From: Bilabrum cf. latius
Taxonomy: Eukaryota
Direction of reading: 5' to 3'
NCBI GenBank assembly: GCA_965178125.1
Contig: OZ237754.1
Location: 682,001 to 746,000, forward strand
DNA length: 64,000 bases
Shown piece after piece: positions 1,449 to 52,944 of the stretch. How positions within the stretch are numbered: position 1 is the first letter of the stretch; each line of letters opens with the position of its first letter. A program made the translations under genes and the position numbers. The notes under the pieces are model-generated. The model was not told the DNA's origin. It did not search any database and saw only the letters and a program-made list of their open reading frames with translations.

Positions 1449-3440
1449 TCACTTCCCCATGCAGAACTCTTTAAATACCACGTCTAAGACATCCTCAGCG
1501 TCGATATGCCCCAGCAAGGCACCAAGCCTGCCAGCACACGCCCGCAGCTCCTCCGCGACCGCCACGAGATCCCCCTCGGCACCCCCCAGCGCAAGCGCCC
1601 TCTCCACGGGGTCCTCCAGCCCAAGCCGGAGACGGTCCTCACCCGCGGCATTTTCCAGCCCTAGCAATGCGGCAGCAACTGTCGCGTGATGCAGCGCAAG
1701 CCGCACGGATTCCCTGTGTCTTTCTCGCAGAAGCAGACGCCCATCCGTCTCAGCGGAGTGGCCAGCGGCGGCTGCAGCAGTGGGTGAGTTTGCGTTGGCC
1801 GACGCGCTGGCCAGCAGCTCAGCCAGGCCGGTCACCCCTCCTTCCTGTTGAGCACTGGTTGCAACCGCCCCCAGCACCTGCAACTCGCTGGGAATCGGCG
1901 CATCAGCACCTGGCCCGCACGCGGCCGCAACAGCCAGGTCCCACTGGCGCCGCATGGTAGCCAGCAGCTCGGGCACCGAACCATCACGAACGTTCGCTTC
2001 AACTAGATCCGTCTTGCTCAGCACTAGCACAACTCCCCGGGAGCCCCCACCCCCACCCCCACCCCCAGCCCCGCATGCGCCTGCACCAACCCCTCCGATG
2101 GATCCACCCGATGCCCTCGCCCTCGCCCTCGCACAGGCATCCATGGATCGGATCCATTCCGAGCAGCCATCTAACCCCTTTGACCACCCACTGACGTCTC
2201 TGTAGTCCGCAACCACGACCACCATGTCCGCAGCGGCAGCCGCCTGCTAGGCCCTTCGTATCCCCTCGGCTTCCACCGGCCCGATCGGCTCAGCGCCCTC
2301 GTCGTGGTCCTGCCCCTGCTCGCTGGGGCTGCTGTCTCCAGGGCTCTATCTTTCTGACTGCTCCGTAGTGCGATCCACCAGTGTTCCCCGCATCCCGGCG
2401 GTGTCAAGCAGCCGAGCACCCGCTCCTCCCAGCTCCACGTGGGCCTCCACGGCGTCCCGCGTGGTGCCGGCCTCACTCGTCACGATGGACGCATCCCTTT
2501 GCAGCAGCGCGTTGAACAAGGAAGACTTGCCCGCGTTGGGGGGTCCCGCGAGCACCACAGAGTGTGACGAGTGCATCGAGGCTCGGTTCCTCAGCAGGGA
2601 GCTCGCCCTCAGGCTGCCCCCGAGCTCTAGGACCAGCCGCTTCACGATGGCACCCAGCTGTCCCTCGGCACCTTGTTCCCCAACGTCGGCCTCTTCGTCC
2701 CCGAAATCCAGGATGGCCTCCGTCATGGCGATCGCGCGGGTGGTCGCCTCCAGCCAGGCCCTTCCCTGCCGCTCCAGGGCGCCCTCCATAACGTGCATTG
2801 CACTGCGGCGCTGCTCCACCGTGTCGGCTTCCAGCAGGCTCCCAAGGCCCTCCACTCGAGTGAGATCGAGCTTGCCGTTCGACAGGGCGCGCCGGGAGAA
2901 CTCGCCTGGACGAGCATATCGCACGACGCCGTCCGTCTGACTCTGTACGTGGGGTTGGCACTGCAGAATTGCTTCCTCTACTGCATCACGGACGGCGAGG
3001 CTGCCATGGGAGTGAATCTCGAGCACGTCCTCGCCAGTGTAGGAGCGAGGACCAGCAAAGAATACGCCCATGCCCCGGTCGATCAATTCTTTCTTCGATG
3101 TTTCGCATGCCATTGATTCATTCGCAGCATAATATGCTAATTTGCTGGCTGGCTGCGCAGCTGGTTGGCCAAACTGGGAGCTACTCCCGACGATTGCAGT
3201 CGGCAGCAGGCGACCGGGCTACAGCAGAACTTTGCGCCCCCGCTGCAGCATTTCGTGTGCAATGCATGAAGCGCCTGGACCAGAAATTCTATGAATCTGT
3301 ACACCGTACTTGCCGGAACCCGTGGAGCACGCAAATATTGTATCTCTTGACGAACTGCTGGCGATGGAGGAGGAAGCTCTGTGATACTGGCATTTGAACC
3401 TCAACAGGCCCCACCACCTGAAGCGGCAAATTGCTTGCAT
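1449..3440 (-). CDS. GTPBP3: tRNA modification GTPase MnmE/GTPBP3/MSS1 (mitochondrial), single exon, 3 in-frame TAG
   Basis: One frame joins DTIFACSTG..IHRISGP, FFAGPRSYTGED, GPPNAGKSSL, AGTTRD, DTAG and the C-terminal FKEFCMGK-TGA. TAGs at 3219-3221, 2346-2348 and 2247-2249. The Arg/Ser-rich N-terminus resembles a presequence. Confidence 0.93.
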
Positions 3441-3619
3441 CAAATGATTTGCATCATAACATAGACAGAAGCTGCATGGTTTGGGAAAGGGTTTTCGTTC
3501 GAGAGAAGAAATCTATTTTGAGCTCCGGACGGCGTTTGAATTAAATTACAAAGTGCCCATTTTGTACCTAAACACGGGCAGTAAATTGCGTAGTATCTCC
3601 AGTCCTGGTTATAGTTAGT

Positions 3620-4032
3620 ATGGCTTCGAAGCGTGACGACCTGACACGTCCAAGTGCTGCGCCAACTGAACCAATTTTTGATGGTGATCACGTCGCCATT
3701 CTGTGCAACGGCTCCCCAGGCAAGCAAGAAGACAGACTGGCGCGATTAATTCGATTTTTGGGAGGCACATCAGAATTTACCATATCTGCATCGACCACGG
3801 TAGCTGTTGCGACTGGAATCGTATCTGAGCAAGATAGTAGGCGGGCTGGCGTGTTCGGACACAACATTTATGACAGCAACTACATACTTGCAAGAGTTCA
3901 AACGCAGAGCTCGTCTCTTCCTCCTGTGAGCTAATTTCCGACGTGTTTTCAACTCCAAGACCAGTGCGATACCATTTAACTGCGGTTCTGTTGCAGATCT
4001 CCACCGTGCGCAGGGCCCTTTCCTGCGAATGA
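3620..4032 (+). CDS. Small hypothetical protein, possibly BRCT-like (2 exons proposed)
   Basis: PIFDGDHVAILC...LARLIRFLGG...TTVAV resembles the BRCT pattern. Putative intron 3926-3996 (GTGAG...TTGCAG); exon 2 ISTVRRALSCE-TGA. Confidence 0.4.
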
Positions 4033-4357
4033 AGGCCGCAGAATCGTGGGCACACCCCGCCTCTGGAGTGCGCGAAAGCGATAAAGTAGTTGTTTCTTTG
4101 CCCCACGTAGCAGGTGCATCGATGCGCACAGCTGCTAGGGTCGCTGGCCGAGCGCCAGTGGTAGCCACCGGTCCGCTTGAGGCCGCAGCCATCACTGAGG
4201 GCTAGCTGAAGTGATGCGGAGAAGGCAACCCTTACCAATAGTGGTGCAGTGCGATTATATGATACATAACTAAATTCCTGTTCCAAGAGTGTCTGCCGGC
4301 TGGCTGGAATCAAAGGCACCCCCGCCAGTCGATTCGAGTCGATCGAGCAGGTCCTCA

Positions 4358-7300
4358 TCACTCGCTCGCAAAAGCATCGGCTCGGGGGAATGCACCTCGA
4401 GCAAGTGCGCGCAAGCTCCCCGCAGCCTCCGCTCCACCCTGGAGCCCGCCCAAGAACCGCACCGCCTCATCCGCCTCCTGCCACGTGCACCCGGCAGGAA
4501 GCGAGGACCCGTCCCCCAGCACCAGGCTGCAGGCAGCCAAGGCATCCTGCCCGCAGGCCACGGCAGCCCTTCCGCGCGCCAACCTCCACGCCAAGGAGTC
4601 CTTCCCTTCCCCACTCATCCCAGCCAGCGCACTAGACGCGTCCTTGGACCCGCCGGACACCCGCTCGTCCGCCAGAGCAGCCTCAAGCGCGGCCTTAGCA
4701 GAGGCTCGAAGCGGCTTGGCGGCCGTGGCACCGCCGCTGCCGCTGTCCCCGGCCGCCCCGCCAGTCGCGGCCCCAGGGTCCGCACCAGCAGCGGCGCCCT
4801 CCCCTGGTTGCTCCCTATCGAGCGCTTCCCTGGCAGCCTGCAGCACCCTCACGCGCAGCAGCGCCACTCTGGGGGAGGTTGGGCACAGCTCCTGCGCCTG
4901 CAGAAGCGCCGACACGGCCTGCAAGACCTTGCCTCGCAGCAGGGCCACGTCAACCTGGGCTTCCAGCGTGTCGATGGACGGCGATTCGTGCTGAGCGAGG
5001 TCTTTGGCCAGCTTGCCTGCGTACCCTAGCGGGTCCTTGGTCTCAAGCATGCGCCAGCCATCCACGTCCACCTCGGGATCCTTCAGCCCGAAGTTCTTCT
5101 CGGCAACCCTGCGAATACCCTTGTGTTGCTTCACTTGTTCCCTGTAGGCAGCGTCGTAGGCCGCTTTTTGTTCCCTGTCCTTGATCACCGCGAGACCGGC
5201 CGCAGTGAGGTGCTGCGCCTCGAGTGGTATCTCCTTGAGCAGCCCCTCCTGCTCCCGACTCAGGCGGATCATGCACCTGATCAGCCCCACCGCTGCCTCC
5301 TGCGGCCCCCTGAACTCTGCCAGCCCGTTCATCCAGCTCATCATCCTCTCGAAGTGTATCATGCGGCCCCCGCGCAGCGTGAAGTGGTGGAAATCCAGCT
5401 CGTCCTCCCGGAGCCGCTTCACGAAGCCCAGGCAATCCGCGTAGCACCGCAGTGCGATGCGCAGGGGCCCGTGCTGCTCGGCCATCTTCGCCAGGGCGAG
5501 GTACACCCAGAACACGTGGCAGTTCTCCAGCGTGGTCATCTGGTACTCCTTGCCGTGGACGAACTTGAACACGACGGCGCGCACCTCGTCCGCGGTGGCG
5601 GTCCCTGCCCTTGCCAGGTACTCCGCGTGCTTCGTGTTCACGTACCTGTCGTCTGCGTCCAGCGCCGCTGCAGTGGCAGCGCTCTCGGAAGCGGCCCTGA
5701 GGGCCCCCTGGTGCTTAAGGCATCGAGCCAGGGCGTGGTGCGCATCCGGCGAGGTGCTCGTGTGATCTACCGCCTCCCTGAGTACCTTCTCGGCCTCCGC
5801 GGAGCAGCCCCACCTGTCCAGGTGCTGCCCTTTCCACAGCAGAAGCAGGAACTGGTGCGCGGGGGTGATGGACAGGCTCGTGGGAGCCCCCTCGATGGAA
5901 GGCATGCCCGCCAGCAGCTCGTCCAAGATGCCTTCCAGGAGCGCGGCCTTGCCGGCCTGCGCCGAGCCAGCGGGCAGGTCAAGCCTCCCTCCGCCCCTGG
6001 CAGACTGTTCCCTAGGCGGGTAGAAGGACTTCAGGTCGGCCACCAGTGTCGTGGAGGACCGCTGCAGCTGCTTGAGCACGTAGTCTCGGAGCATGGGCCG
6101 GAACCCAGCGGAGGACGCAGGCAGCACGTCTAGCCTCACGCGGAGGAGGGCGCGGCTCGAGGGGAACTCCTTGCGGAACCCCTCGATTTCCTCAAGAAGC
6201 TTCCCGGACTCTTCCTCTGGCAAGGGGTCGTCGCACCCCCGCTGGGATAGATCGCGGTAGCTCCACCGACCGAGCACGCCGGCGGCAGGCGGTGCGGCGT
6301 CTGCGCTGCCCGCCGGTCCCGTCCTCCTGAGTCCAAACGCAGGCAGGGGCCTGCCAGTGATGGCCCTGCACAGCCCGGCGATGGACCCCCAGTGTTCGGG
6401 GTTGGACCGCAGCGTGTAGCGGAACCGACCCAGGGCTTCCTCGCGGCGCCCCAGGTGCAGCAGGCAGTGCCCCTCTTGCTCCCTGGCCAGCGTGCGGTTC
6501 TGGATGCGGCCGTGTGCCATGGCGGTCCGCAGCGCCTGCACCGCTGCCTCGTGCCTCCCCGCCCCGGCGAGAACATATGCCTTGTACTGCTCCAGCTGGT
6601 CGAGCACCCTGCAGTTGGTGGGGTCCTTCTTGAGCCACTCGTCCATGTCCAAAGAGGCAAGGTAGACGTCGATGGACTTCAGGGATAGGTCAGTGTTCCC
6701 CAGCATGTGAGTGGCGCAGGCGTAGGCGAACCAGTCGGTCGGCTGCGAACGGTGCTCCGAGGAGCTGAGGACCTCCATGATAGACTGGGACCAGCCGAGC
6801 ATGTCTCGAGTGAGCAGCTACAAGCCACCTAGATCGCGAAGTACCTGTGTGTTGCTACCATGAAGCCGCTTCGCTTGCTAATACCCCTTGAGGGCCACCG
6901 CGTAGTTGCTACGAGAGTTCGAAACCAGGTGGAATGGACGCGCTCTGCATTTGGGTGCTGGCGCAGTTCGCGATTGAGCCATCACTGTCAACCCAGTCTT
7001 ACCCTGCATTTCTGTTGATGATTCCATATATGTGCCACGGGTATACAGACTTTGGGGCAGTTCGCAAAGCAAGGTTGATTTGTTTCATGGCCTCAGCCGA
7101 GTTGCCTTTTCCATTGTGAAAGAGGGCTTTCATTGCCATGGTATCTGCGCAGCAATACGGCTATACATACTATTAATTATGAATATCGGGCGCTGGATCC
7201 TCGCGTGTGATTGGTCACTGGGCCATTCATTCGCTCACCTCCGTGCATGGGATAGGTTTTTAGGAGATCATCGCATAGACGCATGCCAGGGTCATACTAC

Positions 7301-7723: not shown

Positions 7724-10700
7724 ATGGCCGCACCGCCCCCGCCACCTGCTCCAGCGGCAGGCAAATCGAGCGGCTTGTCACCTCCGCCTGCACCGCCAGC
7801 AAGCAAACCGCCCATAGCAGGGCGAGAGCCGCCACTACCGGCACCACCAGCACCACGATCTGGTGCGCACGCATATCAACATCACGACAGCGAAGGAGAG
7901 AGTGACTTTGACGATGATATGAGCCTGCCATCGTCTGACGACATGTCGAGCGTGGGGTCTGTTCGGCAACGATTGGATCGGACACCACAGCTACAACCCA
8001 TGTCTCCATTAGTTCAGGGAACTTCGAACCAAACTACAGAAGTGACAAGTAAGGGCGATCCTATCACTGCACAGGAAAATATTCCAGGGGCTGAACAACC
8101 AAAGGATAGAACATCGGCCGAGTCAACAGCAGGTGGCACTGTGGCACACCAGGGACACAATCAAGTACAAAGCCCAGCTGACTACAACCTTGCTTCCCGA
8201 AACGCAAAACATGCTGCACCGCCAGCTCCGGCAGCGCCCGCCAAGACTGCGGCAAGGGCAGATGGGGCAGCACCGCCAGCTCCGGCAGCGCCCGCCAAGA
8301 CTGCGGCAAGTGCAGATGGGGCAGCACCGCCAGCTCCGGCAGCGCCCGCCAAGACTGCGGCAGGGGCTGGACCCGGTGCTGCACCGCCAGCTCCGGCAGC
8401 GCGCGCCAAGACTGCGGCAAGTGCAGATGGGGCAGCACCGCCAGCTCCGGCAGCGCCCGCCAAGACTGCGGCAGGGGCTGGACCCGATGCTGCACCGCCA
8501 GCTCCGGCAGCGCCCGCCAAGACTGCGGCAGGGGCTGGACCCGGTGCTGCACCGCCAGCTCCGGCAGCGCCCGCCAAGACTGCGGCAGGGGCTGGACAAG
8601 GTGCTGCACCGCCAGCTCCGGCAGCGCCCGCCAAGACTGCGGCAAGGGCAGATGGGGCAGCACCGCCAGCTCCGGCAGCGCCCGCCAAGACTGCGGCAAG
8701 TGCAGATGGGGCAGCACCGCCAGCTCCGGCAGCACCCGCCAAGACTGCGGCAGGGGCTGGACAAGGTGCTGCACCGCCAGCTCCGGCAGCTCCCGCCAAG
8801 ACTGCGGCAAGTGCAGATGGGGCAGCACCGCCAGCTCCGGCAGCGCCCGCCAAGACTGCGGCAAGTGCAGATGGGGCAGCACCGCCAGCTCCGGCAGCGC
8901 CCGCCAAGACTGCGGCAAGTGCAGATGGGGCAGCACCGCCAGCTCCGGCAGCGCCCGCCAAGACTGCGGCAAGTGCAGATGGGGCAGCACCGCCAGCTCC
9001 GGCAGCGCCCGCCTAGACTGCGGCAAGTGCAGATGGGGCAGCACCGCCAGCTCCGGCAGCGCCCGCCAAGACTGCGGCAAGGGCAGATGGGGCAGCACCG
9101 CCAGCTCCGGCAGCGCCCGCCAAGACTGCGGCAAGGGCAGATGGGGCAGCACCGCCAGCTCCGGCAGCGCCCGCCAAGACTGCGGCAAGTGCAGATGGGG
9201 CAGCACCGCCAGCTCCGGCAGCGCCCGCCAAGACTGCGGCAGGGGCTGGACCCGGTGCTGCACCGCCAGCTCCAGCAGCGCCCGCCAAGACTGCGGCAAG
9301 TGCAGATGGGGCAGCACCGCCAGCTCCGGCAGCGCCCGCCAAGACTGCGGCAAGGGATGGACCCGGTGCTGCACCGCCAGCTCCGGCAGCGCCCGCCAAG
9401 ACTGCGGCAAGGGCAGATGGGGCAGCACCGCCAGCTCCGGCAGCGCCCGCCAAGACTGCGGCAGGGGCTGGACCCGGTGCTGCACCGCCAGCTCCGGCAG
9501 CGCCCGCCAAGACTGCGGCAGGGGCAGATGGGGCAGCACCGCCAGCTCCGGCAGCACCCGCCAAGACTGCGGCAAGGGCAGATGGGGCAGCACCGCCAGC
9601 TCCGGCAGCGCCCGCCAAGACTGCGGCAGGGGCTGGACCCGGTGCTGCACCGCCAGCTCCGGCAGCGCCCGCCAAGACTGCGGCAAGTGCAGATGGGGCA
9701 GCACCGCCAGCTCCGGCAGCGCCCGCCAAGACTGCGGCAGGGGCTGGACAAGGCGCTGCACCGCCAGCTCCGGCAGCGCCCGCCAAGACTGCGGCAAGGG
9801 CAGATGGGGCAGCACCGCCAGCTCCAGCAGCGCCCGCCAAGACTACGGCAAGTGCAGATGGGGCAGCACCGCCAGCTCCGGCAGCGCCCGCCAAGACTGC
9901 GGCAAGGGCAGATGGGGCAGCACCGCCAGCTCCGGCAGCACCCGCCAAGACTGCGGCAGGGGCTGGACCCGGTGCTGCACCGCCAGCTCCGGCAGCACCC
10001 GCCAAGACTGCGGCAGGGGCTGGACCCGGTGCTGCACCGCCAGCTCCGGCAGCGCCCGCCAAGACTGCGGCAAGTGCAGATGGGGCAGCACCGCCAGCTC
10101 CGGCAGCACCCGCCACGACTGCGGCAAGGGCAGATGGGGCAGCACCGCCAGCTCCGGCAGCGCCCGCCAAGACTGCGGCAAGGGCAGATGGGGCAGCACC
10201 GCCAGCTCCGGCAGCGCCCGCCAAGACTGCGGCAAGGGCAGATGGGGCAGCACCGCCAGCTCCGGCAGCGCCCGCCAAGACTGCGGCAAGTGCAGATGGG
10301 GCAGCACCGCCAGCTCCGGCAGCGCCCGCCAAGACTGCGGCACGGGCAGATGGGGCAGCACCGCCAGCTCCAGCAGCGCCCGCCAAGACTGCGGCAAGTG
10401 CAGATGGGGCAGCACCGCCAGCTCCGGCAGCGCCCGCCAAGACTGCGGCAGGGGCTGGACCCGGTGCTGCACCGCCAGCTCCGGCAGCGCCCGCCTAGAC
10501 TGCGGCAAGGGCTGGACCCGATGCTGCACCGCCAGCTCCGGCAGCGCCCGCCAAGACTGCGGCAAGGGCTGGACCCGGTGCTGCACCGCCAGCTCCGGCA
10601 GCGCCCGCCAAGACTGCGGCAAGTGCAGATGGGGCAGCACCACCAGCTCCGGCAGCGCCCGCCAAGACTGCGGCAGGGGCTGGACAAGGTGCTGCACCGC

Positions 10701-13700
10701 CAGCTCCGGCAGCGCCCGCCAAGACTGCGGCAAGGGCAGATGGGGCAGCACCGCCAGCTCCGGCAGCGCCCGCCAAGACTGCGGCAAGTGCAGATGGGGC
10801 AGCACCGCCAGCTCCGGCAGCGCCCGCCAAGACTGCGGCAAGTGCAGATGGGGCAGCACCGCCAGCTCCGGCAGCGCCCGCCAAGACTGCGGCAAGGGCA
10901 GATGGGGCAGCACCGCCAGCTCCGGCAGCGCCCGCCAAGACTGCGGCAAGTGCAGATGGGGCAGCCCCGCCAGCTCCGGCAGCGCCCGCCAAGACTGCGG
11001 CAAGTGCAGATGGGGCAGCACCGCCAGCTCCGGCAGCGCCCGCCAAGACTGCGGCAGGGGCTGGACCCGGTGCTGCACCGCCAGCTCCGGCAGCGCCCGC
11101 CAAGACTGCGGCAAGGGCAGATGGGGCAGCACCGCCAGCTCCGGCAGCGCCCGCCAAGACTGCGGCAAGGGCAGATGGGGCAGCACCGCCAGCTCCGGCA
11201 GCGCCCGCCAAGACTGCGGCAAGGGCAGATGGGGCAGCACCGCCAGCTCCAGCAGCGCCCGCCAAGACTGCGGCAAGTGCAGATGGGGCAGCACCGCCAG
11301 CTCCGGCAGCGCCCGCCAAGACTGCGGCAAGGGCAGATGGGGCAGCACCGCCAGCTCCGGCAGCGCCCGCCAAGACTGCGGCAAGGGCAGATGGGGCAGC
11401 ACCGCCAGCTCCGGCAGCGCCCGCCAAGACTGCGGCAAGTGCAGATGGGGCAGCACCGCCAGCTCCGGCAGCGCCCGCCAAGACTGCGGCAGGGGCTGGA
11501 CAAGGTGCTGCACCGCCAGCTCCGGCAGCGCCCGCCAAGACTGCGGCACGGGCAGATGGGGCAGCACCGCCAGCTCCGGCAGCGCCCGCCAAGACTGCGG
11601 CAAGTGCAGATGGGGCAGCACCGCCAGCTCCGGCAGCGCCCGCCACGACTGCGGCAAGGGCAGATGGGGCAGCACCGCCAGCTCCGGCAGCGCCTGCCAA
11701 GACTGCGGCAAGTGCAGATGGGGCAGCACCGCCAGCTCCGGCAGCGCCCGCCAAGACTGCGGCAAGTGCAGATGGGGCAGCCCCGCCAGCTCCGGCAGCG
11801 CCCGCCAAGACTGCGGCAAGGGCAGATGGGGCAGCACCGCCAGCTCCGGCAGCGCCCGCCAAGACTGCGGCAAGGGCAGATGGGGCAGCACCGCCAGCTT
11901 TGACAGTGCCCACCAGAGCTGTGCACAGCGAAAAGCTAAAACGATCTGCTGTGCGGATTCAGGCTTGGTGGAGGTTCTGCGTGGCATCCGCGAGCTTCAA
12001 GCGGTTCCGTACTGCCGTTCATCGGATAACTGCAGGTATCCGGGGCATGCAGGCCAGAGGTGTGGTCCGACGCAGGCGAGCTGCTTCTCACAAGCTCGGT
12101 TTGTGGGGCAAGATGGCTGCTACCAGAGCCCGGTTCAAGCAAGAGAAGGAGCAGGCCGCCAGTGCCGTGAGTGCAATTGGTGCCATGTACCGCGCCAAGC
12201 GAGCCCAGCAAGAGGCCAACAAGCGCCGCGAGGCCATGGGAATGGTCAACATGTGGGCAGCGTCGAGGGTTGTGCGGAAGAAATTCAGGCGAAGTAGGGC
12301 GGCAGCCACGAAAAGCCAATCCGTGGTGCGGGCTTGGCAAGCTCGCAGAGAGTTCGCCACGATGAGAAAGCGGGTCATCAGAGTGCAGGCGCAAGTGCGC
12401 CGATTTGTTGCGAAGCTCAAGCTGAGGGTGGCTCAACGAGCCGCTACGAGGCTTGCAGCCACGTTTCGAAGAGCCAAGGCATCCAAGCACTACTAGCGGC
12501 AGAAGTAGGCGGCCGTGCATATGTAGCGGCACATACGAGGCAGGCGCATGCGATTGCAATACGCTGACTAGCTTGGTCGCACAGTGAGGGTTCAGGCCCT
12601 AGTGCGGCGCTTCATCGATCGTGTGCGATACAGGAAGCAGCGCCGAGCTGCCATCTTGCTGCAGTCCCTCGGTCGAGGATGGAGAGCCAAGCGTGAGTTT
12701 GGGGGCACGCGCTCTTTGACCATCCGGGCGCAGGCCATAGTGCGTCGGTTTCTGGCCAAGCTGGCACTGCGCCGGGCAAAGCGAGCCGAGACAGTCATTG
12801 CAGCGGCCATGCGCATGCGGCTGAGTAGGTTAAGGTTCTTGGATATTCGCAGGTCAGTGGTCGTATGCCAGTCCGTAGCTCGCATGCACTTTGTGCGCCT
12901 ATGGTTCAAGCACTTGCGCTAGTGCACGATCCGTGTGCAAGCTCAGGCTCGCCGGCTTATTGCCCGATCTAGCTTACACAGGGTAAAGCGAGCCACTGTG
13001 TTGTTGCAGACGGGCATTCGTGGGCGGTTGGCCAGAACTCTGTCCAGGCGCAGGTCAACAGCTGTGCAATCCATGCAGCTGTGGGCCAGCGCTCGCCTCG
13101 CTAGGCAGGACTTCGTGCGCAAGAAAGATGCGGCCACGGCGATCGCAGCAAGAGTCAGGGCGGTGCAAGGCAAGAAAAAGTACGCGCAAAAGCGGAGGGC
13201 GTCTACTCTCCTGGCGGCAGCTGCGCGAAGGCATTCGGCCCGCAAGGAGTACGGCAGAGTGCGGTACTTGACCACCAAGGTGCAGGCGCAGGTGAGGGGC
13301 TGGATCGAAAGGGCAAGGCGGCGCCTTGTGGCAGAATCAGTGACCAAGATAGCCTCTCGATTCCGGGCTTACCTACACCAGCAAGAGTTTCAGAGGTTGC
13401 GATACTTAATCACCTCCATCGCAGCGCACTGGCGGGGCCTGGTGGTGCGCCGCGTGTTCCGCAGGATGCGATGGGTGGTGGTGAAGCTGCAGGCGTATGC
13501 CAGGCGCTCACGCTGCATGCGACTCATCAAGGTGCTTGCGCAGCAGGATTTGCGGTAGAAATTTGGCGGATCTGCTGCTGTAGAACGGCGCGTCGTGAAC
13601 AAGCCAGTGGCGACTGGCTCCTAGGTGTATGGATTGGATGCAGGGGCCTTGTACCCCAGGAGCGCGTATCCGGGAGCACCGTCTGAAGGGCGTACGGAGG

Positions 13701-16249
13701 GGCCACCTCGTCCAAAAGCGTTTTACCGGTCGCACGTAGGTGATGTGGTACTGGGCAACCTGCGGCGGCATGCCAGCATTGGAGTGCTGCGAGGTACAAG
13801 AACGGTCGCAAAGAAACCAGGCAAAGCTGCTCTCATTGGAATGGCCGTAGAGCGCGAGGCAGCCGCCATGGAGGCAATCGAGCTGAACAGCAGCGGGGTT
13901 GATCGCGCCATGGGACTTGATGCGGCTCATGGTGCTGCAGGAACGGTGGAGAATGGGCATCACAGCCACGGGCGGACGCACTGGAGCAAGCGCGGTGTGC
14001 GGGTGACCCGGACCCCAGATACCAGCAAGGAATACGAGCGGCTGCAGTTCGTTCTGGGCGAGCTCAAGAGCATTCGCGATGCCGCTGCGACGCTTCGGGC
14101 TGCGGACGGCGGCTCCAAGCGCCAACGTGCAATGGGTGAATCCACAGTCCCTGCAGGATCCACCCGACAGGAGCAGCTCCCTCTCACAAACAGCACTTCA
14201 TTTCTCGACGAACAGGCCATGCCAGCGGACGCACCCTCCATCGTGTTCATGCAGCAGCAGGCGGAGTACTCTGCCAGAGCCCCTTCGCCTGTCAAGCACT
14301 CGCGGTCGCCCCCTCCACCGCTTCAGATCCGGCGCACCCTACCAGGTGACTCTGAAGAGCAAAACCAGCAACCAGCGACCCGAGAGAGGGAAAGAGATGA
14401 AGCCGGCTAGTCACCATGGAACAGAGACGCAATCAGATCAAAGCAGTTCCGGGGCGTACAGAGCCGGCAGTATACTCCTAAGTGCCAGTGGAAGCGTATG
14501 GATGAGAGGCAGTACGAGCAGCGGGTTGGCGTGGCACATGGGCACTAGCCCCTGCAGCTCGAGGGCGCACATGACGAGGGCATGCTGCTTGACAGGGCGC
14601 AGCGAGCGGCGCAATTTGCAGCAGAAATTGCGATGGAGCGGGAGACAGGCAGCCTGTCGTCATCCGCCCGCACCCGCGAGGAGGTTGAGGACATGGCTGC
14701 ATTGGCTGTGAGAGCCACGAGCGGTGGCATGTCTCCAGTGTCTTTGGCTTCCTCTGTTGACACTATGTCTCCTAGACACCAAGTTTCGTTCGGTGAGATG
14801 CCAGACGGGCAAGAAGCAAGTGAGAGAGGACGGGAGAGGGAGCAAGGCGCGGCTCTGGGTAGCAGGCGAGACAGAAGTCCACACCTTAGAGACAGGGACG
14901 GCAAGCATGGCGACCAGCTGCTGTCTCCTGGAGGCAGCAGGTACATCGGTTTGAAGGAGTACCGGCTGCCTGGATCGATGTAGAGCGACTCCCAAGGAAC
15001 GCCTGTGAAAATGGGGGGTCTCAGTGACAGAAAGGGCATCGAGTCCGTGCCACCTGGGGCAGTGGGGTTTCCCGGAGATGCTGGGTGGGAGGGAGCGATG
15101 AATGCGTCTGGCAGGCCAAGGGGGGCACTGGGTGCCACCTCCAAGGAACGAAGGAAAATGTACAGGGCGCAATCGGTGGAGTCGCTGGGTGCGGCACCCG
15201 TTACCGAGGACGCTGGCTTACTGTGGGGCAAAGGGGGACCAAGGCGTAAATCGTCGGGGCGGGAAGGCGATGGTGAGGCTGGTACGATTCCATATAGATA
15301 GGAGGAGGGCAGGCCTACAGAACCAGCGAGTGCGCACTACTCGCATGGACCCATCATACCGGAGGCAGCTGAGTACTCGGACAGCGCATACGGCTCTGCA
15401 GCGAGCGGAGAGGACGGTGTGCGGGCCGTGGTTCTTACCCATCACAGGCAAGATCGCGAGTCTCCTAGGAGCAAGACTAAAAGGACCGAAGCAAGCCACA
15501 GGCCCAGCCAGGACGCTGTGCATTGGAGTCCAAGTCGAACTGGCGAGCCCAGGCCCAGCCAGACCCGGCCCCCGCCGCCTCCACCGCCAGGGCAGCCCCC
15601 TTCCCAGCGCAAGAGGCGCTCTCCAGCCGGTGCGGTGGAACGTCAGGAACACGGCTATGTGACGTCAGGATCGGATCAGCCTTGGGGTCAAGATCTCCGC
15701 CCTTCAAGCTCTGCGCGCAACAGGACCGAGGAACAGTACAGCGCCGTGCTGGGCATGGGCACCAGGCTGAGCCGGCCTTCAAGGCCTCGGCCAGGAGGAA
15801 GAGGCGGAGGTGCAGCCAGCGGGAGCCCGGTGGGGGCAGGCACTAGTTCCCCTACGGGGGTGCAGGCGTAGTACCAGGGCCAGGGCCGGGGCCAGTCTTC
15901 CACCGAGTCTTCTCCAGGCGGTGCGGCAGGAGGAGCAGGCATGGCGGGATTGGACAGGTATGTCAGCGTGCACGTGCGGAAGGGGAGCGCCGCGCTGAGC
16001 AGGTCTCGGAGCCGGTCCAGGAGTCGGATGAGGAGGGAGAGGGCGAGCAGCAGGGGGCAAGGGAGGGGTAGGTCCCACCTGAGTCCCGCAGAGAGTCGCG
16101 ACGATGCTTCCCCCGTGTCGATGAGGGCGGCTGGGCCCGAGGTCACCAGGAGCAAGCGGGGGCACAGGATGACGGTAGCGAGCGTCAGGGCCGCCTCCCA
16201 GGGCCGGCTGCGAGTGCCACCGGCCTTCCAGGCGCTGTTCAAGAGCTGA
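7724..16249 (+). CDS. Giant (2841 aa) intronless protein: Pro/Ala tandem repeat, IQ calmodulin-binding array, disordered C-terminus
   Basis: Track ORFs at 7724, 11900, 12584, 12935, 13625, 14582, 15005, 15419 and 15941 share one frame. They are separated only by TAG (14 counted), with no TAA/TGA until TGA 16247-16249. Many IQxxxRG-type motifs lie at 11950-13550. Confidence 0.85.
8213..11899 (+). repeat. ~3.7 kb coding minisatellite, 54/57-bp units (AAPPAPAAPAKTAA-SADG/RADG/GAGPG/GAGQG), ~67 copies
   Basis: Core gcaccgccagctccggcagcgcccgccaagactgcggca repeats with 54- and 57-bp variants; frame is preserved throughout. Confidence 0.97.
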
Positions 16250-35562: not shown

Positions 35563-37292
<1,730 letters not shown>

Positions 37293-43965: not shown

Positions 43966-46746
43966 ATGTGTGGAATCATTGCATTCATGTAAGTATAAAA
44001 TTAGGTGCAAATTGGCCGATATTTTGACTGAACCGATGGGAAGGGGATGAACCCCGAGTTTCTGAATTGGCGGTTTCGGCGCAAGGTGCGGGTGGTCTCA
44101 TGTAGCCCTTGCATGTTGAGGGTGGCACGGCTTTAAGCTGTTGAGGACTACAGCGTAGTATGATCAACTGGATATGAGGAGCCTGCGTGCTAACTCTGGC
44201 AGTGCCTTGAAGCCAGAGATGTGTCGCATGGTGGAGTTGGCGCTGCGTGCCCAAAGCGCAAAGCGGCTGCACATGGAGCTGCGCAGCCTCTTGTCGCGAG
44301 TTTATCGCCTGCAAGTGAATACACGCTATAGTCCACGCGAATGAATGGGCATTCTTGAGTGTCGGGTCTATCCCCTTTGGTGCACAGCGTTACCGGCACC
44401 GCTCGGCGAGCTGCTTCGATCAGTCGGCCTATCATGCACCCCACGGTCACTTCTCTCGCTCCCCGCTCTCTATCAGAATATACTTTACCTCGCAGTGGTA
44501 GCCGCCAGGCCCTGGAACTCCTCATCAAGGGTCTGGTGCGCATGGAGTACCGGGGCTACGATTCCTCCGGGGTAGGCATTCTGAAGCGCGGAGCCGAGGG
44601 GGAGCCGAACACGATCCAGGTGGTCAAGAGGAAGGGTAAGATCGTAAACCTGAAGAGCGCGGTAAGCGGCGGCCTGGAAGGCACCCTCGGGGTGGCGCAC
44701 ACCCGCTGGGCCACTCACGGGGCCGCCAACGACGTGAACGCGCACCCGCACTGCTCCCCCGACGGACAGGTGTGCGTGGTGCACAACGGCGTGATCGAGA
44801 ACCACGCCCTCCTCCGCAGCGTGCTGCAGGGCAAGGGCTACAAGTTCCGGTCCGAGACCGACACCGAGGTGCTCTGCAACCTCATCCACGACGTGCGGGC
44901 CAGCGCCCCCATGCTCACTCCCGAGGAGGTGGTGACCGCCGCGCTGTCACAGGTGGAGGGGGCATTCGGGATCGGGGTCATCTTCGCGGACCAGCCCGAC
45001 GTGCTCATCGGCGCGCGGCGAGGCTCTCCGCTGATCCTGGGCATAGTCAGCGATGGGACGGAGGGGGAAGGCAAGGAGGGCGAGGGCAAGGGGCACGAGT
45101 ACATCCTGGCCTCTGACGCCACTGCGATTCTCGAGTACACCAAGCGGGTGGTGTACCTGGGCGAGGGCGAATTGGTGCGTGCCACGAGGACGGGCATGGA
45201 GCTGTTCTCTCTGGATGTGGACGAGTCTGGGCACATCCACCACGCCGGGCACGAGTCTGCCAAGGAGGTCGCGGGGGTCGAGGGGGGGGAACAGGCGGAG
45301 GAGGGGGAGGGGGAGATGGGTGGTGGCGATGGACCCGCGAGCGGGGCTGGTCATGCCACGGCCGGATTGGGCGTGGTGGGTCGGATGTCTCCCCTGCTGA
45401 AGCCCAAGCCCAAGGGGGACGGGGAGGCGGCAGGGGGCGACCGCAAGAAGCAGGCCAGGCAGTCGCTGAAGGGTCTCTCCAGGCGCATCCCAGAGATCCA
45501 CCGCCTGGAGATGGACCTGCAGAAGATCGAGAGGGGCGGACACAAGCACTTCATGCTCAAGGAGATCTTCGAGCAGCCCGAGGTGCTGAGGAACTGCATG
45601 CGGGGGAGGGTTGACGCAGAGGCGGGGTCCATCCGCATTGGGGCCATGAGCGAGAGGCTGCCCCCCAGGGCGGGGGCGGGGACCGGCGGGGCAGCCACGG
45701 GGGGTGCTGGTGCTGCGGCGGCAGCTGCAGGGGAGGGAGTGGAGGTCGGGCCCACCGTCCTGGAGCGGTTCCTGGCTGCGCGGCGCCTTGTGATCGTGGC
45801 CTGCGGAACCTCCTTCCACTCGGGCCTGGTGGGCGAGTACCTGATCGAGAGCCTCGCACGCATCAATGTGGAGGTGGAGTACGCCTCTGAGTTCAGGTAC
45901 AGGAATCCGCTGCTGGACGAGAACGACGTGGTGATTGCCGTGTCCCAATCGGGGGAGACGGCGGACACGCTCGCAGCCATCCGGCTCGCGCAGGAGCGGG
46001 GCGCGCTCACCTTTGGGCTTGTCAACGTCATCGGGTCTAGCATCGCAAGGGAGACAGACGCAGGGGCCTACCTGAGGGTGGGTCCCGAGATCGGGGTGGC
46101 TTCCACCAAGGCCTTTACCGCCCAGGTGTGCGTATTCACTATGCTTGCCCTGCTGCTGGGCAAGGAGAAGGGCACCATGTCCGATGAAGACTTCAAGGCG
46201 GGGGCGGCGGCTCTGTGGGCCATCCCCGACACGATCGAGAGGGTCCTGACGGAGAACAAGGGACCTGTCATGGAGGTCAGCAGGAGCTTCCGTTTCGCTC
46301 AGAGCTTCTTGTACCTGGGTCGGGGGTACAACTACCCTGTGGCGCTGGAGGGTGCCCTGAAGCTCAAGGAAATCTCGTATATCCACGCAGAGGGGTATGC
46401 CGCCGCGGAGATGAAGCACGGGCCCATCGCGCTGATCGATGAGTTCATGCCCGTTGTGATGATCCTGCCGTCCTCTGACCCGACCTACGACAAGATCAAG
46501 AGCAATCTGGCAGAGGTGCGGGCCAGGTCAGGGGTGGTCATCTGCGTCACGGAGGAGAGCAACGAGCACATCGACGAGCTGGAGGCCCTGTGCGACTCGG
46601 TGATCACCGTGCCGGAGGTGCAGGACTGGCTGTCACCGCTCGTGACAGTGGTGCCTCTGCAGCTGCTGTCCTACTACATCGCGGACCTGAGGGGTTGCCC
46701 CGTGGACCAGCCCAGGAACTTGGCCAAGGCAGTCACCGTGGAATGA
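43966..46746 (+). CDS. glmS: Glutamine--fructose-6-phosphate aminotransferase (isomerizing), bacterial GlmS-like, 2 exons
   Basis: Exon 1 43966-43988 (MCGIIAF), intron 43989-44495 (GTAAGT...CGCAG), then IGSRQAL..KGL.RMEYRGYDSSG, AHTRWATHG, VHNG, SETDTEV, SQSGETADT, GVASTKAFT, ALKLKEISYIHAEG, PRNLAKAVTVE-TGA. Confidence 0.96.
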
Positions 46747-47036
46747 TTGTGGGAGGGGCGGTTGGTGAGCGGCGGGCACGGGGCGGCAAGGCCGCCAGGG
46801 GGGTTTGTTTGCTTCCCTCGTGCGCGGAACCTAGCGAATGCGGATCGAATCGAACGCATGCGCGGTCCTCGCGAGGGATGAAGAAACGCGCCATCGGAAG
46901 CATGGGCTGGTTTCAAAAAGAGTCAGAAGCCCTGCATGTGTCAGCGTGGATTGGTTGCAAAGTGATGTGTTTCGCAGCCATGCACTGCATCGATTCTGAA
47001 AAGACGGTCGAAACTGCAATGAAACTGGATGTTGAG

Positions 47037-47512
47037 TCAGCCACCGTGCACAATGATCCGGTTCTCCCTCTGTACGTAGATGCCCTCCTTGTACAGCCAG
47101 TCTCGGATTGCGACTCTGTGGTCACCCATTAGAATGATGGTGGGCCCGTGCACCCTGTCCGACTTCACAGTCGTAGAACAATGCAGCAACTTGCCCAAAC
47201 ACTTTGCCATATATTTCAAGTCCAAACTGCGTGCATGAAGCGGCACCAATTGTGTACAAAGCTAGCGTGCAACAATGCCCTGGTCTTCAAGGACGGCAAC
47301 CTGCTCTGCAGGGCTCGAATCGGCGCAAACTGATTCGATAGGGGCGCACCCCATTCTCACTCTTCATCCAAGCCAGTAACCGAGGTAATGGCCTTGCGCC
47401 GCGTTCGCTGCTGCGAGCGAATGTGCACCTTTGGAAGGTCTGTTCTTGTCCCCTGCGGGGCTGATTCCACGTTCATCAACTCCATTGTTCCACCTTCTGC
47501 TGCGCTTGACAT
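47037..47512 (-). CDS. Translation initiation factor eIF1/SUI1-like protein (divergent), 2 exons
   Basis: Exons 47512-47361 and 47226-47037: KVHIRSQQRTRRKAITSVTGLDEDLDLK..AK.L.K..HCSTTV...G..I.LMGDHR..IRDWL...I.VHGG-TGA. Confidence 0.85.
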
Positions 47513-47695
47513 GCTACTGCTTGATTCACTAATACTTTTACGGGTTGTACGACTCTTTATTCTTAGCTTAATCAGGTATAGAAGAGCAAGCCGCTGGATG
47601 TTGACATAACATCACACTACTGCCCCTACTTCCGGATTTTCGCATGGAAAACCAGACGGAACCGTGGACCCAAACCGACCTGCGAACTGGTGGGT

Positions 47696-48226
47696 ATGCC
47701 GAGTAAATTCGATGTCGATGTTAGTAAATAGAAGTCAACTGCGGAGGAGAAGGAGCCGCTGACTGCCCCGGCAGCAACGGGCGCGGGTGAATCGGGTGCA
47801 ACAGCACCGCCCGAGAGTTTCTAGCCGAGCAACTCTCCTTCTACAACGCCATCAAATCCCAAGGGGATACAAAACGCAATCTACTAGGCTACTATTGGTG
47901 AAGGTTTGCATCTGGGCAACGTATTTGTCCCTGCTGGGGTGCTCGCAGTTGGGGCCGCTGGTGCTGGTTTCTTGGTTGGAGGTCTGCCGGTAGCAGGGTT
48001 CTGCGCACTGCTTGGGGTCGCATTTCTTGCTATTCGAGCTGGGGCACACATGCCCGCAGGGAGCTCGAGCGGTGGCGGCGGTGGTTCGATGTCGAACGGA
48101 CGCGCGAACCGGAGGGGCAGGCGGGGGGGAGCGCGTGGAGGTGGCTCTGCTGGCGGCAAGCGGACCATGACGCTCCAGGACCTGCCGAGGGCCCCTGTCC
48201 GCAGCTGAGGCGGTGGGGCATGCTAA
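47696..48226 (+). CDS. Putative SelK/SelS-like membrane selenoprotein (3 TAG=Gln, candidate Sec TGA 48206-48208, TAA stop)
   Basis: Single frame from ATG 47696: hydrophobic segment(s), Gly/Arg-rich tail, then RTMTLQDLPRAPVRS-TGA-GGGAC-TAA. SECIS-like stem-loops lie downstream. If TGA is a stop, the CDS ends at 48208. Confidence 0.6.
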
Positions 48227-48545
48227 GCACGATGTACGATGCTGTGCCAGGCGCCCGTAAGGGGGATGTGAAGGCTTCAGCGCCACCCCTCCCCCTAGCA
48301 CGGCCTGGCACTCTCTCGATTATCGATCGTCGTGCTCTGCATGCCCCCCTGTCGCCCTCGCGGTGGTGGCTTTGATTCTCGCAGGATTGGGGTTAAGCGG
48401 TAGAGAGCCTATGGAGCATCGAATTGTAGCGTGCTCTTTCTTGCCGCCCCGTTCTCCTTGCCACCGTGCGCCGAAATAGGCAGGTACTAGGCTACCCACA
48501 CACTCATTGCATGCACCGGCACGACTATCGGAGACGTTCAGTCGT

Positions 48546-48683
48546 GCGGTGCATCACCGATGACGGCCGCCACGTCACGGCCTATTGGCCCTCTCTTGCT
48601 CCTTCCGAATCCGATCGGGGAGGGCGGAGCAAGTGAGGGCTGGCAGCGTGACGGCCTGAGGTCAAAGAGGTGCGGTGTGCTGC
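48546..48683 (+). promoter_or_regulatory. Candidate SECIS-like stem-loop in the 3' region of the putative selenoprotein gene
   Basis: Helix I gcggtgcatcacc / ggtgcggtgtgctgc; core ATGAC (48560) / TGAG (48657); helix II ggccgccacg / cgtgacggcc. The apical part is unusually long and has no obvious AAR. Confidence 0.4.
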
Positions 48684-48987
48684 ATTCGGCGCAGCATTCT
48701 TTTGGTGCCATTCTGTTGAAATGGAATATATCTTCTGCATTTCCGCCCCCGGAGCGATCAAATCAATCCACAACTTGAATGCAATCACGATGCGCGCTCT
48801 CGTCACGCCGTCGCCTGCGGTGTCGGGGGTGCTGTGCAGGGAGCTCCGCGACCGGCATTACCCATCTCGGTCACGCGGCATTGCCTTCCTAGCCTGGTTG
48901 CGATCGTTCATTGGCTGATCTGAGTTACAGGAAGAGGCGGCCGCACGCACTAGCACCAAGTGTATCCACTGCTGCTGCCACTTTGCA

Positions 48988-51900
48988 ATGGCAAAGGCAA
49001 CCGGCCGTACCGTCGACGTGACATTCAAAGAGTAGCTCCTGGGCATGTTTTTGCTCCCAGTCGTCCATGGGTAGGCGGAAGAAGACCCGCACCTGGGCGC
49101 ATACGTCGAGCGACTTGAGTCGAAGAAAGGAGGCAAGACGGAGGCGCAAACCAGCGGCAAGATCCTGCCAGGGATGCAGATTGTTGCGATCAATGGAGAG
49201 AGTACAGAGTTTTAGGACTTCGAATCTGTAATAGACAAGCTTAAGTCAAGCCCTCGGCCTCTGGTAGTCACGTTTCGTCATTTAGTCGATCTTGATTTTC
49301 GGGATGCGTACGATTTTAGCGTCTCGGAACAGAACTGCAGGCTAGAAAAACAGTACGCCGCATCCCAGAACGAGAGCATTCAAGCAAGAGACTAGTCCTG
49401 GTTCCAGTTCCTGAAGGAGCTCGGCGAAGACGGCCGGGACCCCGGCTAGCCGAGTGCGCAGCCGGTGCAAATGGGAATCCGGCGGCTGCACCGCACCGCG
49501 GAGGGTCTGATCCCCCTGGCCCGTCGCCCACAAGAATCCCGCACCGTCACAGACACCGTGCAGGAGGTCCGCACCGACTCTGCTCTCCGGCTCCTGGACA
49601 TGCACGCGGGGCCCTCGCTCTTCCCCGTGCCCGGCGTGGAGGCCCAGCCAAACCCGGGGCTCAGGGCCAGGGCCTCCACCACGGGGAGCAGCGGGGCCAC
49701 ACCTGCATCTGCAAGGAGCGGCGGGGTCGCGTCCACTTCGCCCGCGGGCGCACACGACGGTCCCGGCGCCGCCTCCCCTGCCCCTGCCCCTGCCCCTGCC
49801 CCTGCCACTGCTGGGGCCCACGCCCGGGCGGTCCCGTCGTCCGGCTCCGAGTCATTCGAAGCCGCGACAGCGGATCCGTCCACGTCCATGTTCAAGCGGT
49901 TCTGGTCCGAGGGTGGCGTCGGGGGCCGCATCCCGGACTGGCGGTCGCACGTGGCCCAGGCCATGGAGCTCCACCGGCACGAGAGGTCGGTGGTGGACAA
50001 GGCCATGGCCGTGCAGCAGCAGGCCGCCGACTGTGCCACACCCTCGGGTCTGTCCACCCCACGAAGCCAGGCATCGGGTGCACTGAACGGCGGTGCGGCG
50101 GTGGGGAACGGCCGCTCCACGCCGACCCCCTTGCCGAGCACACCTGTGCCGGCCAGCCCCTCCGCCGCCTCTGCCCCTGCCCCTTCCGCCGCTGGAGAGG
50201 CCTCGTCGGGCGGGGACAGCAGCGGGGCGGGCGCAGAGGGGGGAGAGCCTGGCACCCGTCGCTCAGCACCGGGTGATGAGGAGCCGCCCACGCCTGACCT
50301 GCGCATCCACACCCCCCAGGCCTCGGCCTCCACCCCGGCTCGCAGCACGTCAGGCGGGGGCCGTCGCGTGGCCGGCGGCACCCTCCCACCGGCAGGGAAC
50401 TAGACGTACGCGGCGGGCAGCAGCCCCGTGCACACGGCAGACGAGGACGCATTGGAGCTGCAGCGGGTGCTGGGCGCGGGCGGGTAGGGCCCCAAGCGGC
50501 ACACGCGCAAGGTCAGCGGGCAGTTCGAGGGAATCGGGGGCCCGGCACAGCAGAGGCGCCTCTTCCGCCTGCAGCGGCTGGTGCTGGCGGGGGTGCCAGC
50601 CCTGTATCGGCCAGCAATCTGGCTGGAGCTGAGCGGAGCCAACGCCAAGAAGGCACTGCACCCCGACGGGTACTACGATTCGCTGGTGAGCTGCGGTCCC
50701 GCCGAGGACGTGAGGTATGCCATCGGGAAGGACGTGAAGAGGACCTTCCCCGGGCAGCCCTTCCTCTCCAGCAAGAAGGGGCTGGACGCTCTGAGCAGGC
50801 TGCTGGGGGCGGTGGCCGTGCACAACAAGGAAGTGGGGTATTGCCAGAGCCTCAACTTCGTGGCTGCGGTGCTGCTGGTGCTGCTGCCCACGGAGGAGGA
50901 CGCTTTCTGGGTGATGGACGCGATGGTGAACGAGGTGCTCCCGGAGAACTACTTCGCCTCTCCCATGCTGGGGCTGAGGGCAGACCAGGAGGTGCTGGGC
51001 AAGGTCATCGACTAGAGGCTGCCTGCCGTGGGCACCGCCCTCCGCAAGACCGGCGTGCAGCTGCGGCTCTTCACGAGCGAGTGGTTCCTTGCCCTCTTCT
51101 GCTCCACGCTGCCCATGCACACGGTGCTCAGGGTCTGGGACGCCCTCTTTCTGTTCGGGGGCGAGGCCATCTTCAGGGTGGCGGTGACGCTGCTGTGGCT
51201 CAACCGACAGAAGATCGCGAAGGCCTCGGGGGATTTTGTGGGCATGTTCGCTGCCCTCCGCGGGTGCTGCGGCATACCAGAGGCGCACGACGAGCAGTTG
51301 ATCATGCAGGCAGCCTTCTCTGACAAGATGGCGGGGCCGGGGCGGGCTCGAGGCAGGGCCGGTGCGAGGAGGGAGGACGTGCCAGTGGACTGGAAGGGCT
51401 TCGGGATGGAGATGCTGACCAAGCTGCGGGCCGAGGCAGCGGAGGAGGTGGTGGACGAGCACAGGCAGCTGGTCCTGGAAGCCGAGCAGAAGAGAGCCAG
51501 GGCGGAGGAGAGACTGGCTCGGGCGCAAAAGAAAGCTGCTGAGCTGGCAAACAGGGAGGAGGAGGCAGGGGCGGCCAGTGCTGCTGGGGGCCGGGATTTG
51601 GAAGGCGGGGCTCAGGGGAGGGAGGAAGAGGCGGAGGAAGAGGAGGAAGAGGAGGCGGCTCGTAAGCAGGCCCAGAAGGAGCAGGAAGAGGAGGCGGCTC
51701 GCAAGCAGGCCCAGAAGGAGCAGGAAGAGGAGGCGGCTCGTAAGCAGGCCCAGAAGGAGCAGGAAGAGGAGGCGGCTCGTAAGCAGGCCCAGAAGGAGGA
51801 GGAAGAGGAGGCGGCTCGCAAGCAGGCCCAGAAGGAGCAGGAAGAGGAGGCGGCTCGTAAGCAGGCCCAGAAGGAGGAGGAAGAGGAGGCGGCTCGTAAG

Positions 51901-52944
51901 CAGGCCCAGAAGGAGCAGGAAGAGGAGGCGGCTCGTAAGCAGGCCCAGAAGGAGGAGGAAGAGGAGGCGGCTCGCAAGCAGGCCCAGAAGGAGCAGGAAG
52001 AGGAGGCGGCTCGTAAGCAGGCCCAGAAGGAGGAGGAAGAGGAGGCGGCTCGTAAGCAGGCCCAGAAGGAGGAGGAAGAGGAGGCGGCTCGTAAGCAGGC
52101 CCAGAAGGAGGAGGAAGAGGAGGCGGCTCGCAAGCAGGCCCAGAAGGAGCAGGAAGAGGAGGCGGCTCGCAAGCAGGCCCAGAAGGAGGAGGAAGAGGAG
52201 GCGGCTCGTAAGCAGGCCCAGAAGGAGGAGGAAGAGGAGGCGGCTCGTAAGCAGGCCCAGAAGGAGGAGGAAGAGGAGGCGGCTCGTAAGCAGGCCCAGA
52301 AGGAGGAGGAAGAGGAGGCGGCTCGCAAGCAGGCCCAGAAGGAGGAGGAAGAGGAGGCGGCTCGTAAGCAGGCCCAGAAGGAGGAGGAAGAGGAGGCGGC
52401 TCGTAAGCAGGCCCAGAAGGAGCAGGAAGAGGAGGCGGCTCGTAAGCAGGCCCAGAAGGAGGAGGAAGAGGAGGCGGCTCGCAAGCAGGCCCAGAAGGAG
52501 GAGGAAGAGGAGGCGGCTCGTAAGCAGGCCCAGAAGGAGCAGGAAGAGGAGGCGGCTCGTAAGCAGGCCCAGAAGGAGGAGGAAGAGGAGGCGGCTCGTA
52601 AGCAGGCCCAGAAGGAGCAGGAAGAGGAGGCGGCTCGTAAGCAGGCCCAGAAGGAGCAGGAAGAGGAGGCGGCTCGTAAGCAGGCCCAGAAGGAGGAGGA
52701 AGAGGAGGCGGCTCGTAAGCAGGCTCAGAAGGAACAGGAAGAGGGTGAAGAAAGTGGTGTCGCTGAACAGGTTAGCGCTACAGACGGCTTGGCGGAAAAG
52801 GCCGAAGTTGGTGAGGATGATGACCAGGATGGAGATAGTGGGGCAGACGACGGCGCTGACGGGACCGCTGCTGCCGGTGATGAAGCTGCCGCGAAGACGG
52901 GCGGGGACAAAAAGGGGAAGCGTCGCCGTCGACGGAGGAAGTGA
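48988..52944 (+). CDS. PDZ + TBC (RabGAP) domain protein with C-terminal charged helical repeat, 8 in-frame TAG
   Basis: PDZ: VDVTFKE[TAG]LLGM...SGKILPGMQIVAINGE...FESVIDKLKSSPRPLVVTF. TBC: LVLAGVPALYRPAIWLELSGA, IGKDVKRTFP, GYCQSLNFVAA, EEDAFW, WFLALF, LRVWD. One frame, TGA stop. Confidence 0.92.
51643..52743 (+). repeat. 39-bp coding tandem repeat (E/Q-EEEAARKQAQKE, ~28 copies)
   Basis: gaagaggaggcggctcg(t/c)aagcaggcccagaaggag(g/c)ag repeats with only two variable positions. Confidence 0.96.

Follow-up and report, generated by a model that had tools for sequence, protein, structure and literature searches.

The window, i.e. the whole 64,000-nt stretch of DNA analysed here, has a GC content of 48-73% in 2-kb windows and belongs to a GC-rich eukaryote with few introns. 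On its plus strand lies a small open reading frame (ORF) that starts at an ATG (47696), contains three in-frame TAGs (47729-31, 47822-24 and 47885-87) and ends at a TGA, which is followed in the same frame by five codons and a TAA. A long hairpin starts at this TGA (Table 1). The minus strand carries a neighbouring SUI1/eIF1 gene of two exons (47027-47566), both of which match Pfam SUI1 (E 6e-8 and 1.6e-5). The exons are separated by a 134-nt intron (47227-47360, GT..AG on the minus strand), the joint of which is found in the contigs of the three RNA-like runs X5, X6 and X7. The small gene and SUI1/eIF1 look like a divergent pair, approximately 115 bp apart.

The same gene order is found in L001, the metagenome locus that encodes P0003, a homologue of the small protein: the end of GFAT, SUI1, the small gene and a RabGAP gene with nine TAGs are syntenic. 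L001 apparently holds two SUI1 copies (384-757 and 1230-1618; blastn identities of 74-82% and 69-70%) versus one in the window. The RabGAP-TBC gene of the window (48988-52944, +) has eight TAGs. Units resembling EEEEAARKQAQK form a long tandem array that makes up its C-terminal third, and its N-terminal half is conserved in L001.

Table 1. Features of the small gene, its probable transcript and the block and hairpin at the TGA (positions in the window)
Feature	Position	Strand	Evidence
Probable mRNA of the small gene: 5'UTR of ~15 nt, CDS, 3'UTR of ~520-540 nt	47681..48745	+	Contigs, three RNA-like runs, two studies
CDS, 170 codons + TGA, TAG read as Gln at codons 12, 43 and 64	47696..48208	+	Homologue, codon-position pattern, codon usage
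Hydrophobic core, residues ~75-117	47918..48046	+	Hydropathy, alignment, AF2 helix 80-117 (low confidence)
Gly/Arg/Ser-rich tail, ending in conserved M-x-L-x-DLP-x-x-x-VRS	48047..48205	+	Alignment, composition
Most conserved transcript block, 28/29 nt identical to L001	48203..48231	+	Alignment
TGA, also in the relative, paired at the hairpin foot	48206..48208	+	L001 comparison, folds
Long unbranched hairpin starting at the TGA	48206..48360	+	MFE -85.9 kcal/mol, z -7.07, 0/200 shuffles as stable
Five codons GGC GGT GGG GCA TGC (GGGAC), 4/5 identical in the relative, the fifth synonymous (GCA/GCG)	48209..48223	+	
In-frame TAA, also in the relative	48224..48226	+	L001 comparison

Genetic code of the window

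When TAG is read through, fragments fuse into frames of 2841, 2282 and 1272 codons with 14, 25 and 17 TAGs, respectively. Eleven frames were taken as clear genes, eight of them with Pfam domains (GH63, RabGAP-TBC, GFAT, DEAH helicase, ankyrin, TrmE, NatA auxiliary subunit and enolase) and three without. Aligned to solved enolases, the enolase TAGs (n = 4) are located at an invariant Q in three cases and at a K in one. Between the RabGAP proteins of the window and L001, TAG stands opposite Q in 8 of the 12 informative cases, a count that leaves out one TAG-TAG pair and two gaps; the other four are two H, one V and one D. TGA is the stop of nine of the eleven genes and TAA that of the other two, in both cases at the proper protein end. 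The helicase segment that was compared contains no TAG and is uninformative on this codon, but it does place a TAA stop at the proper end of the protein.

Based on the enolase and RabGAP alignments and on the stop counts, the sequences support a code in which TAG encodes Gln, TAA is a stop and TGA is the default stop. For TAG and TAA, this is how the original prediction had read them, and both assignments are borne out by these alignments and by the TAA stops at proper protein ends. Nuclear codes in which UAG alone is reassigned, with UAA and UGA kept as stops, appear to be the kind of code treated in PMC5304391. The window resembles those in which UAG encodes Gln, as TAG is likewise a sense codon at Gln positions and TAA and TGA end genes.

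The use of TAG tracks GC3: GFAT has no TAGs (GC3 of 0.85) and the DEAH helicase has three (0.86), and two long frames have 17 and 25 (0.50 and 0.61, respectively). CAA follows GC3 likewise across the 11 genes. The 2841-codon frame with its 14 TAGs (7724-16249, +) has dozens of tandem Ala/Pro-rich units (AAPPAPAAPAKTAA...) and, after them, a long region that is basic and rich in Arg and Ala, and no Pfam family matches it. The enolase frame (36336-37292, +) comprises the C-terminal barrel only, from approximately residue 153 of the solved enolases. Its N-terminal half must be on one or more upstream exons, and therefore the genome has introns.

The small gene and its product

With TAG read as Q, the small ORF encodes 170 residues with the C-terminal end ...TMTLQDLPRAPVRS. 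Kyte-Doolittle windows of 19 residues score at least 1.6 at window starts 75-99, which marks residues ~75-117 as hydrophobic. A conserved Y-x-ATIGEG-x-H-x-G motif is located directly N-terminal of this core, and the last 54 residues of the protein include 15 G and 9 R. The AF2 model displays a helix at residues 80-117 with low confidence and, with a mean pLDDT of 51.6, was too poor for a fold search. The best explanation is a membrane protein of ~170 aa in which a disordered N-terminus precedes a core of ~43 hydrophobic residues and a Gly/Arg-rich tail with ...DLPxxxVRS at its end. Sequence and hydropathy confirm the frame as it was originally described, i.e. an ATG at 47696, three TAGs, a hydrophobic segment and a Gly/Arg-rich tail that runs into ...PVRS-TGA-GGGAC-TAA.

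A phmmer search of 1.84 billion representatives identified one true homologue, P0003 (167 aa, E 7e-24), which has 41-45% identity to the small protein and shares the motifs Y-x-ATIGEG-x-H-x-G, GFL-x-GG-x-PVA and terminal DLP-x-x-x-VRS. When the C-terminal ends are aligned, ...AVRS of P0003 stands opposite ...PVRS of the window protein. A second phmmer match, the 598-aa repeat protein P0004 (E 5.4e-4), was discarded as a low-complexity match. Word-indexed protein searches returned nothing at near lengths with a single-protein query, only P0003 with a profile and nothing among shorter proteins. The Pfam matches of the small protein at E ≤ 10 are limited to CEND1 (E 0.78) and FoP_duplication (E 6.4), both at chance level, and P0003 has none. 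The best E in a PDB profile search was 0.13, and the top score of an Atlas search with P0003 was 0.84, a lead only.

The small gene and its relative are 58, 63 and 34% identical at codon positions 1, 2 and 3, respectively, and the codon usage of the frame gives a log-odds of +24.5 bits. Given the homologue, the codon-position pattern and the codon log-odds, the small ORF is, as judged from sequence, a real plus-strand gene and a lineage-restricted orphan, which standard-code gene callers would split at TAG. A spurious ORF, i.e. a chance open frame in GC-rich DNA under TAG readthrough, might be suspected from the several overlapping frames of 150-234 aa that are open here when TAG is read. Such an origin is hardly credible for a frame with a homologue at this E-value, this codon-position pattern, conserved synteny and a transcript-like contig.

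The mirror frame on the minus strand (48276-47572) is also open, with six TAGs, and reads RAQHAPPPQLRT across the block around the TGA. If it were coding through this block, the conservation described below would therefore be ordinary coding conservation. Aligned between the two species, the mirror frame is 38% identical (E 9e-18), and it has its wobble positions in common with the plus frame. However, the codon log-odds of the mirror frame is -22.6 bits, versus +24.5 bits for the plus frame, and 6 of its 42 third-position changes are non-synonymous (36:6 synonymous to non-synonymous) versus 1 of 43 in the plus frame (42:1). The mirror frame also reaches 47572, beyond the RNA-like contig end at 47681, the block is located upstream of its first Met in both species, and its product is Pro-rich and of low complexity. 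A minus-strand gene is thus considered very unlikely.

The small gene is covered by contigs from the RNA-like runs X5 (47697-48745), X6 (47682-48704) and X7 (47681-48745) with no joints and no differing letters, and the DNA-like run X3 extends without a break from 44000 to 49761. The RNA-like contigs are unstranded, and their ends indicate only weakly where the transcript starts and stops; the strand was derived from codon usage and third-position changes. The small gene is probably expressed, and the first ATG of the transcript is that of the ORF. RNA editing of the UGA was considered and rejected, the contigs having no differing letters.

A conserved block and a hairpin at the TGA

The L001 counterpart of the block around the TGA reads AGC TGA GGC GGT GGG GCG TGC TAA GCACG. 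The best 30-nt window of the 1218-column alignment (28/30 identical, including uninterrupted matches of 17 and 11 nt) contains this block, the limits of which were picked after the data were seen. GFAT and SUI1, which served as controls, lose their blastn match at the stop codon (46746 and 47037, respectively), whereas the match of the small gene extends 26 nt beyond the TGA, to 48234. Homologues that end at the TGA position, with the GGGAC tail not conserved, had been named as evidence against the original prediction; the only homologue keeps the TGA, the GGGAC codons and the TAA (28/29 nt). Both species have the TAA in frame, and the single change in the tail, GCA to GCG, is synonymous, a 'synonymous only' pattern that depends on this one change in a comparison of two species. 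In the other two plus frames across the block, the changes become non-synonymous.

Synonymous sites elsewhere in the gene are saturated, with identity in 19 of the 67 conserved degenerate codons. Four of the five tail codons are identical against this baseline of 28% (binomial P ~0.025), and identity goes on for 5-8 nt past the TAA (GCACG). Since four of five tail codons are identical against this baseline and conservation continues past the TAA, the alignment argues that an RNA-level constraint on the block exists, and the tail itself appears to be under selection. Such a constraint could account for the whole pattern even if the tail were untranslated. As a DNA pattern, the block is unique in the window and has no matches in the genome-contig and viral-contig collections. 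A box C/D snoRNA was rejected on inspection, with the conserved part located downstream of CUGA and not upstream.

The arms of the hairpin in the window are located at 48215-48240 and 48322-48347, with a strong helix from 7 nt after the UGA. Its counterpart in L001 (3502-3640) has a folding energy of -57.8 kcal/mol (z -3.63), and none of 200 shuffles is as stable. The hairpin limits were set after the folds had been seen, and wider segments give z values of -4.07 and -1.21. The loops, the 3' arms and the pairing registers differ between the two hairpins, and forcing the S1/S2 pairing of the window on L001 costs 19 kcal/mol, i.e. the folds are not the same in detail. Because the loops and 3' arms differ and the registers are not the same, a second constraint besides pairing apparently acts on the 5' arm of the hairpin. 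A local GCGUGC-UAA-GCACGC hairpin of L001 was also considered; it is not conserved, as the window has mismatches at two of its pairs.

At gathering thresholds, Rfam has no matches in the whole window. At E ≤ 10, generic miRNA-hairpin models (15-23 bits versus thresholds of 74-168) and a frameshift model (15.8 bits) appear, and both were taken as chance. A second hairpin with a pyrimidine-rich and a purine-rich arm is present in both 3'UTRs (window 48588-48640; L001 3874-4001), with unrelated sequences. In the window its arms are 15 nt long and 93% complementary. These second hairpins match one plant miRNA model at 18.7 bits (window) and 16.3 bits (L001), versus a threshold of 79.

How the UGA may be read

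The original prediction proposed that the UGA is read as selenocysteine (Sec), which would form a U-x4-C redox pair with the Cys of the tail, such that one mRNA would use TAG for Gln, TGA for Sec and TAA as the stop. On this reading, the C-terminus of the membrane protein would be a flexible selenenylsulfide arm, U-GGGA-C. Conservation of the UGA, tail and TAA at a protein identity of only 41-45% speaks for it, although an RNA-level constraint could mimic this. The 3'UTR is long (~520 nt), and the hairpin just 3' of the UGA recalls Sec-redefinition elements. SELENOK and SELENOS are small selenoproteins of the ER membrane; their tail is Gly-rich, basic and disordered, and a UGA precedes the true stop by a few codons. 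The layout here loosely recalls theirs, with a small membrane protein, a Gly-rich basic tail and a UGA shortly before the TAA. It fails in other respects: SELENOK and SELENOS have a single N-terminal helix, whereas the hydrophobic span here covers residues 75-117 of 170, after an N-terminal region of 70 residues; their UGA is 2-3 codons from the end, whereas here it is the sixth codon from the end; and the window protein has no Pfam sequence match and no SECIS was found here. SelK is widely distributed, according to PMC2375036.

A second resemblance concerns the arm. As described in PMC6272602, Plasmodium thioredoxin reductase has a C-terminal redox arm, G-C-GGGK-C-G, with redox residues four apart, and the U-x4-C spacing with GGG matches its Cys-GGGK-Cys. 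Both are flexible C-terminal X-GGG-x-Cys arms (U/C-GGGA-C here), which is a resemblance only. The Plasmodium arm described there belongs to a large flavoenzyme and is encoded with two Cys codons, whereas here the protein is a small orphan membrane protein and the first residue of the pair is a UGA.

Several results speak against Sec. TGA is the default stop and ends 9 of the 11 genes. A homologue with Cys at the UGA position was not found in the libraries searched, the sole homologue having TGA, and there is no match to any selenoprotein family. The tRNA search of the 64-kb window returned no tRNAs. The eukaryotic SECIS is a kink-turn hairpin in the 3'UTR (AUGA ... AA ... GA), and none was detected in either species; a missing SECIS had been listed by the original prediction itself as evidence against it. 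Rfam at E ≤ 10 detected no SECIS in the window at 47400-49100 and 48200-48760, nor in L001 at 3300-4600 and 3495-4140; the searches of ~560 and ~650 nt list matches down to ~15 bits. Our own scans for a UGA...GA kink-turn core with a helix II, performed with a scanner unvalidated on known SECIS, left no acceptable candidate, neither in the two 3'UTRs nor across the entire window. The SECIS-like survivors of these scans were CTGAG 48657 and ATGAC 48561 (which encloses 84 nt and has a forced G-G pair) in the window, and three in L001, namely TTGAT 3967 with two 3' partners and ATGAT 3573. All were rejected because they are without an unpaired AA or a proper helix II.

Selenocysteine at this UGA is thus unsupported and unlikely. 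The three-meaning reading is partly supported, in that two of its three codon meanings hold while Sec is left without its defining signal. In a variant of this reading the protein would be a selenoprotein without a canonical SECIS, with Sec directed by the long hairpin at the UGA in a bacterial-like or SRE-like placement; we regard this as improbable as well, if anything a shade more so. If it were true, a U-GGGA-C arm would be found on an orphan membrane protein and the three standard stops would have three meanings in one mRNA. If the inserted residue were Sec, the locus would represent a new selenoprotein family with an unusual insertion signal.

We tentatively favour another reading, in which TGA-GGGAC-TAA and the hairpin form a stop-codon recoding or readthrough cassette. 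The UGA would act as the usual stop, at which most ribosomes probably terminate. The hairpin, positioned at the mRNA entrance, would disturb termination at the UGA, and a fraction of the ribosomes would continue to the UAA, adding X-GGGAC. The analysis shows the gene to be real, TAG to be read as Gln, the cassette to be conserved and the hairpin to be present in both species; translation of the tail and the residue that would enter at the UGA are inferred. As no SECIS was found in either 3'UTR, near-cognate readthrough (Trp, Cys or Arg) is more likely at the UGA than selenocysteine.

Viral UGA readthrough signals with a 3' stem-loop are known, as are short functional extensions such as readthrough-added targeting signals. 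As in programmed readthrough systems, both species display a short in-frame extension that is conserved as far as the following stop, itself conserved, and a stable structure downstream. Such systems differ from the present case in the nucleotide that follows the UGA, which is a G in both species and not the C of the leaky context, and UGA-G is not among the known leaky contexts. They differ further in that the extension here is six residues without a recognised signal, and in that the hairpin is 140-155 nt long, with the stop codon itself in its foot.

Alternatively, translation may simply terminate at ...VRS, with the block as the 5' arm of an untranslated 3'UTR hairpin element. Such an element could give rise to a small RNA, bind a protein, act on stability or protect a long 3'UTR. 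Plain termination agrees with the TGA that ends 9 of the 11 clear genes, with the absence of a detected SECIS and with a hairpin that is significant in both species. The over-conserved synonymous sites of the tail and the conservation beyond the TAA likewise point to an RNA-level constraint, and a frozen 5' arm with a divergent loop and 3' arm is what would be expected of a small-RNA precursor; the plant miRNA hairpin model matches are weak and far under threshold. Plain termination does not, however, predict a conserved in-frame TAA six codons further on or a tail whose sole substitution is synonymous. Nor should 29 nt stay fixed through pairing alone when the arm they pair with changes, and no known element of this kind is matched in Rfam. 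We rate plain termination as a serious possibility, held with somewhat less confidence than the recoding cassette. The two are close in odds, and two species cannot separate them.

Even with an untranslated tail, the locus would still show a stop codon overlapped by a hairpin of unusual conservation. With a translated tail, as under the favoured recoding cassette, the UGA, 15 nt, the UAA and the hairpin would together make up a compact, naturally occurring recoding signal. Since this eukaryote has already given up UAG as a stop, the locus would be a good site to ask how the remaining stops are read.
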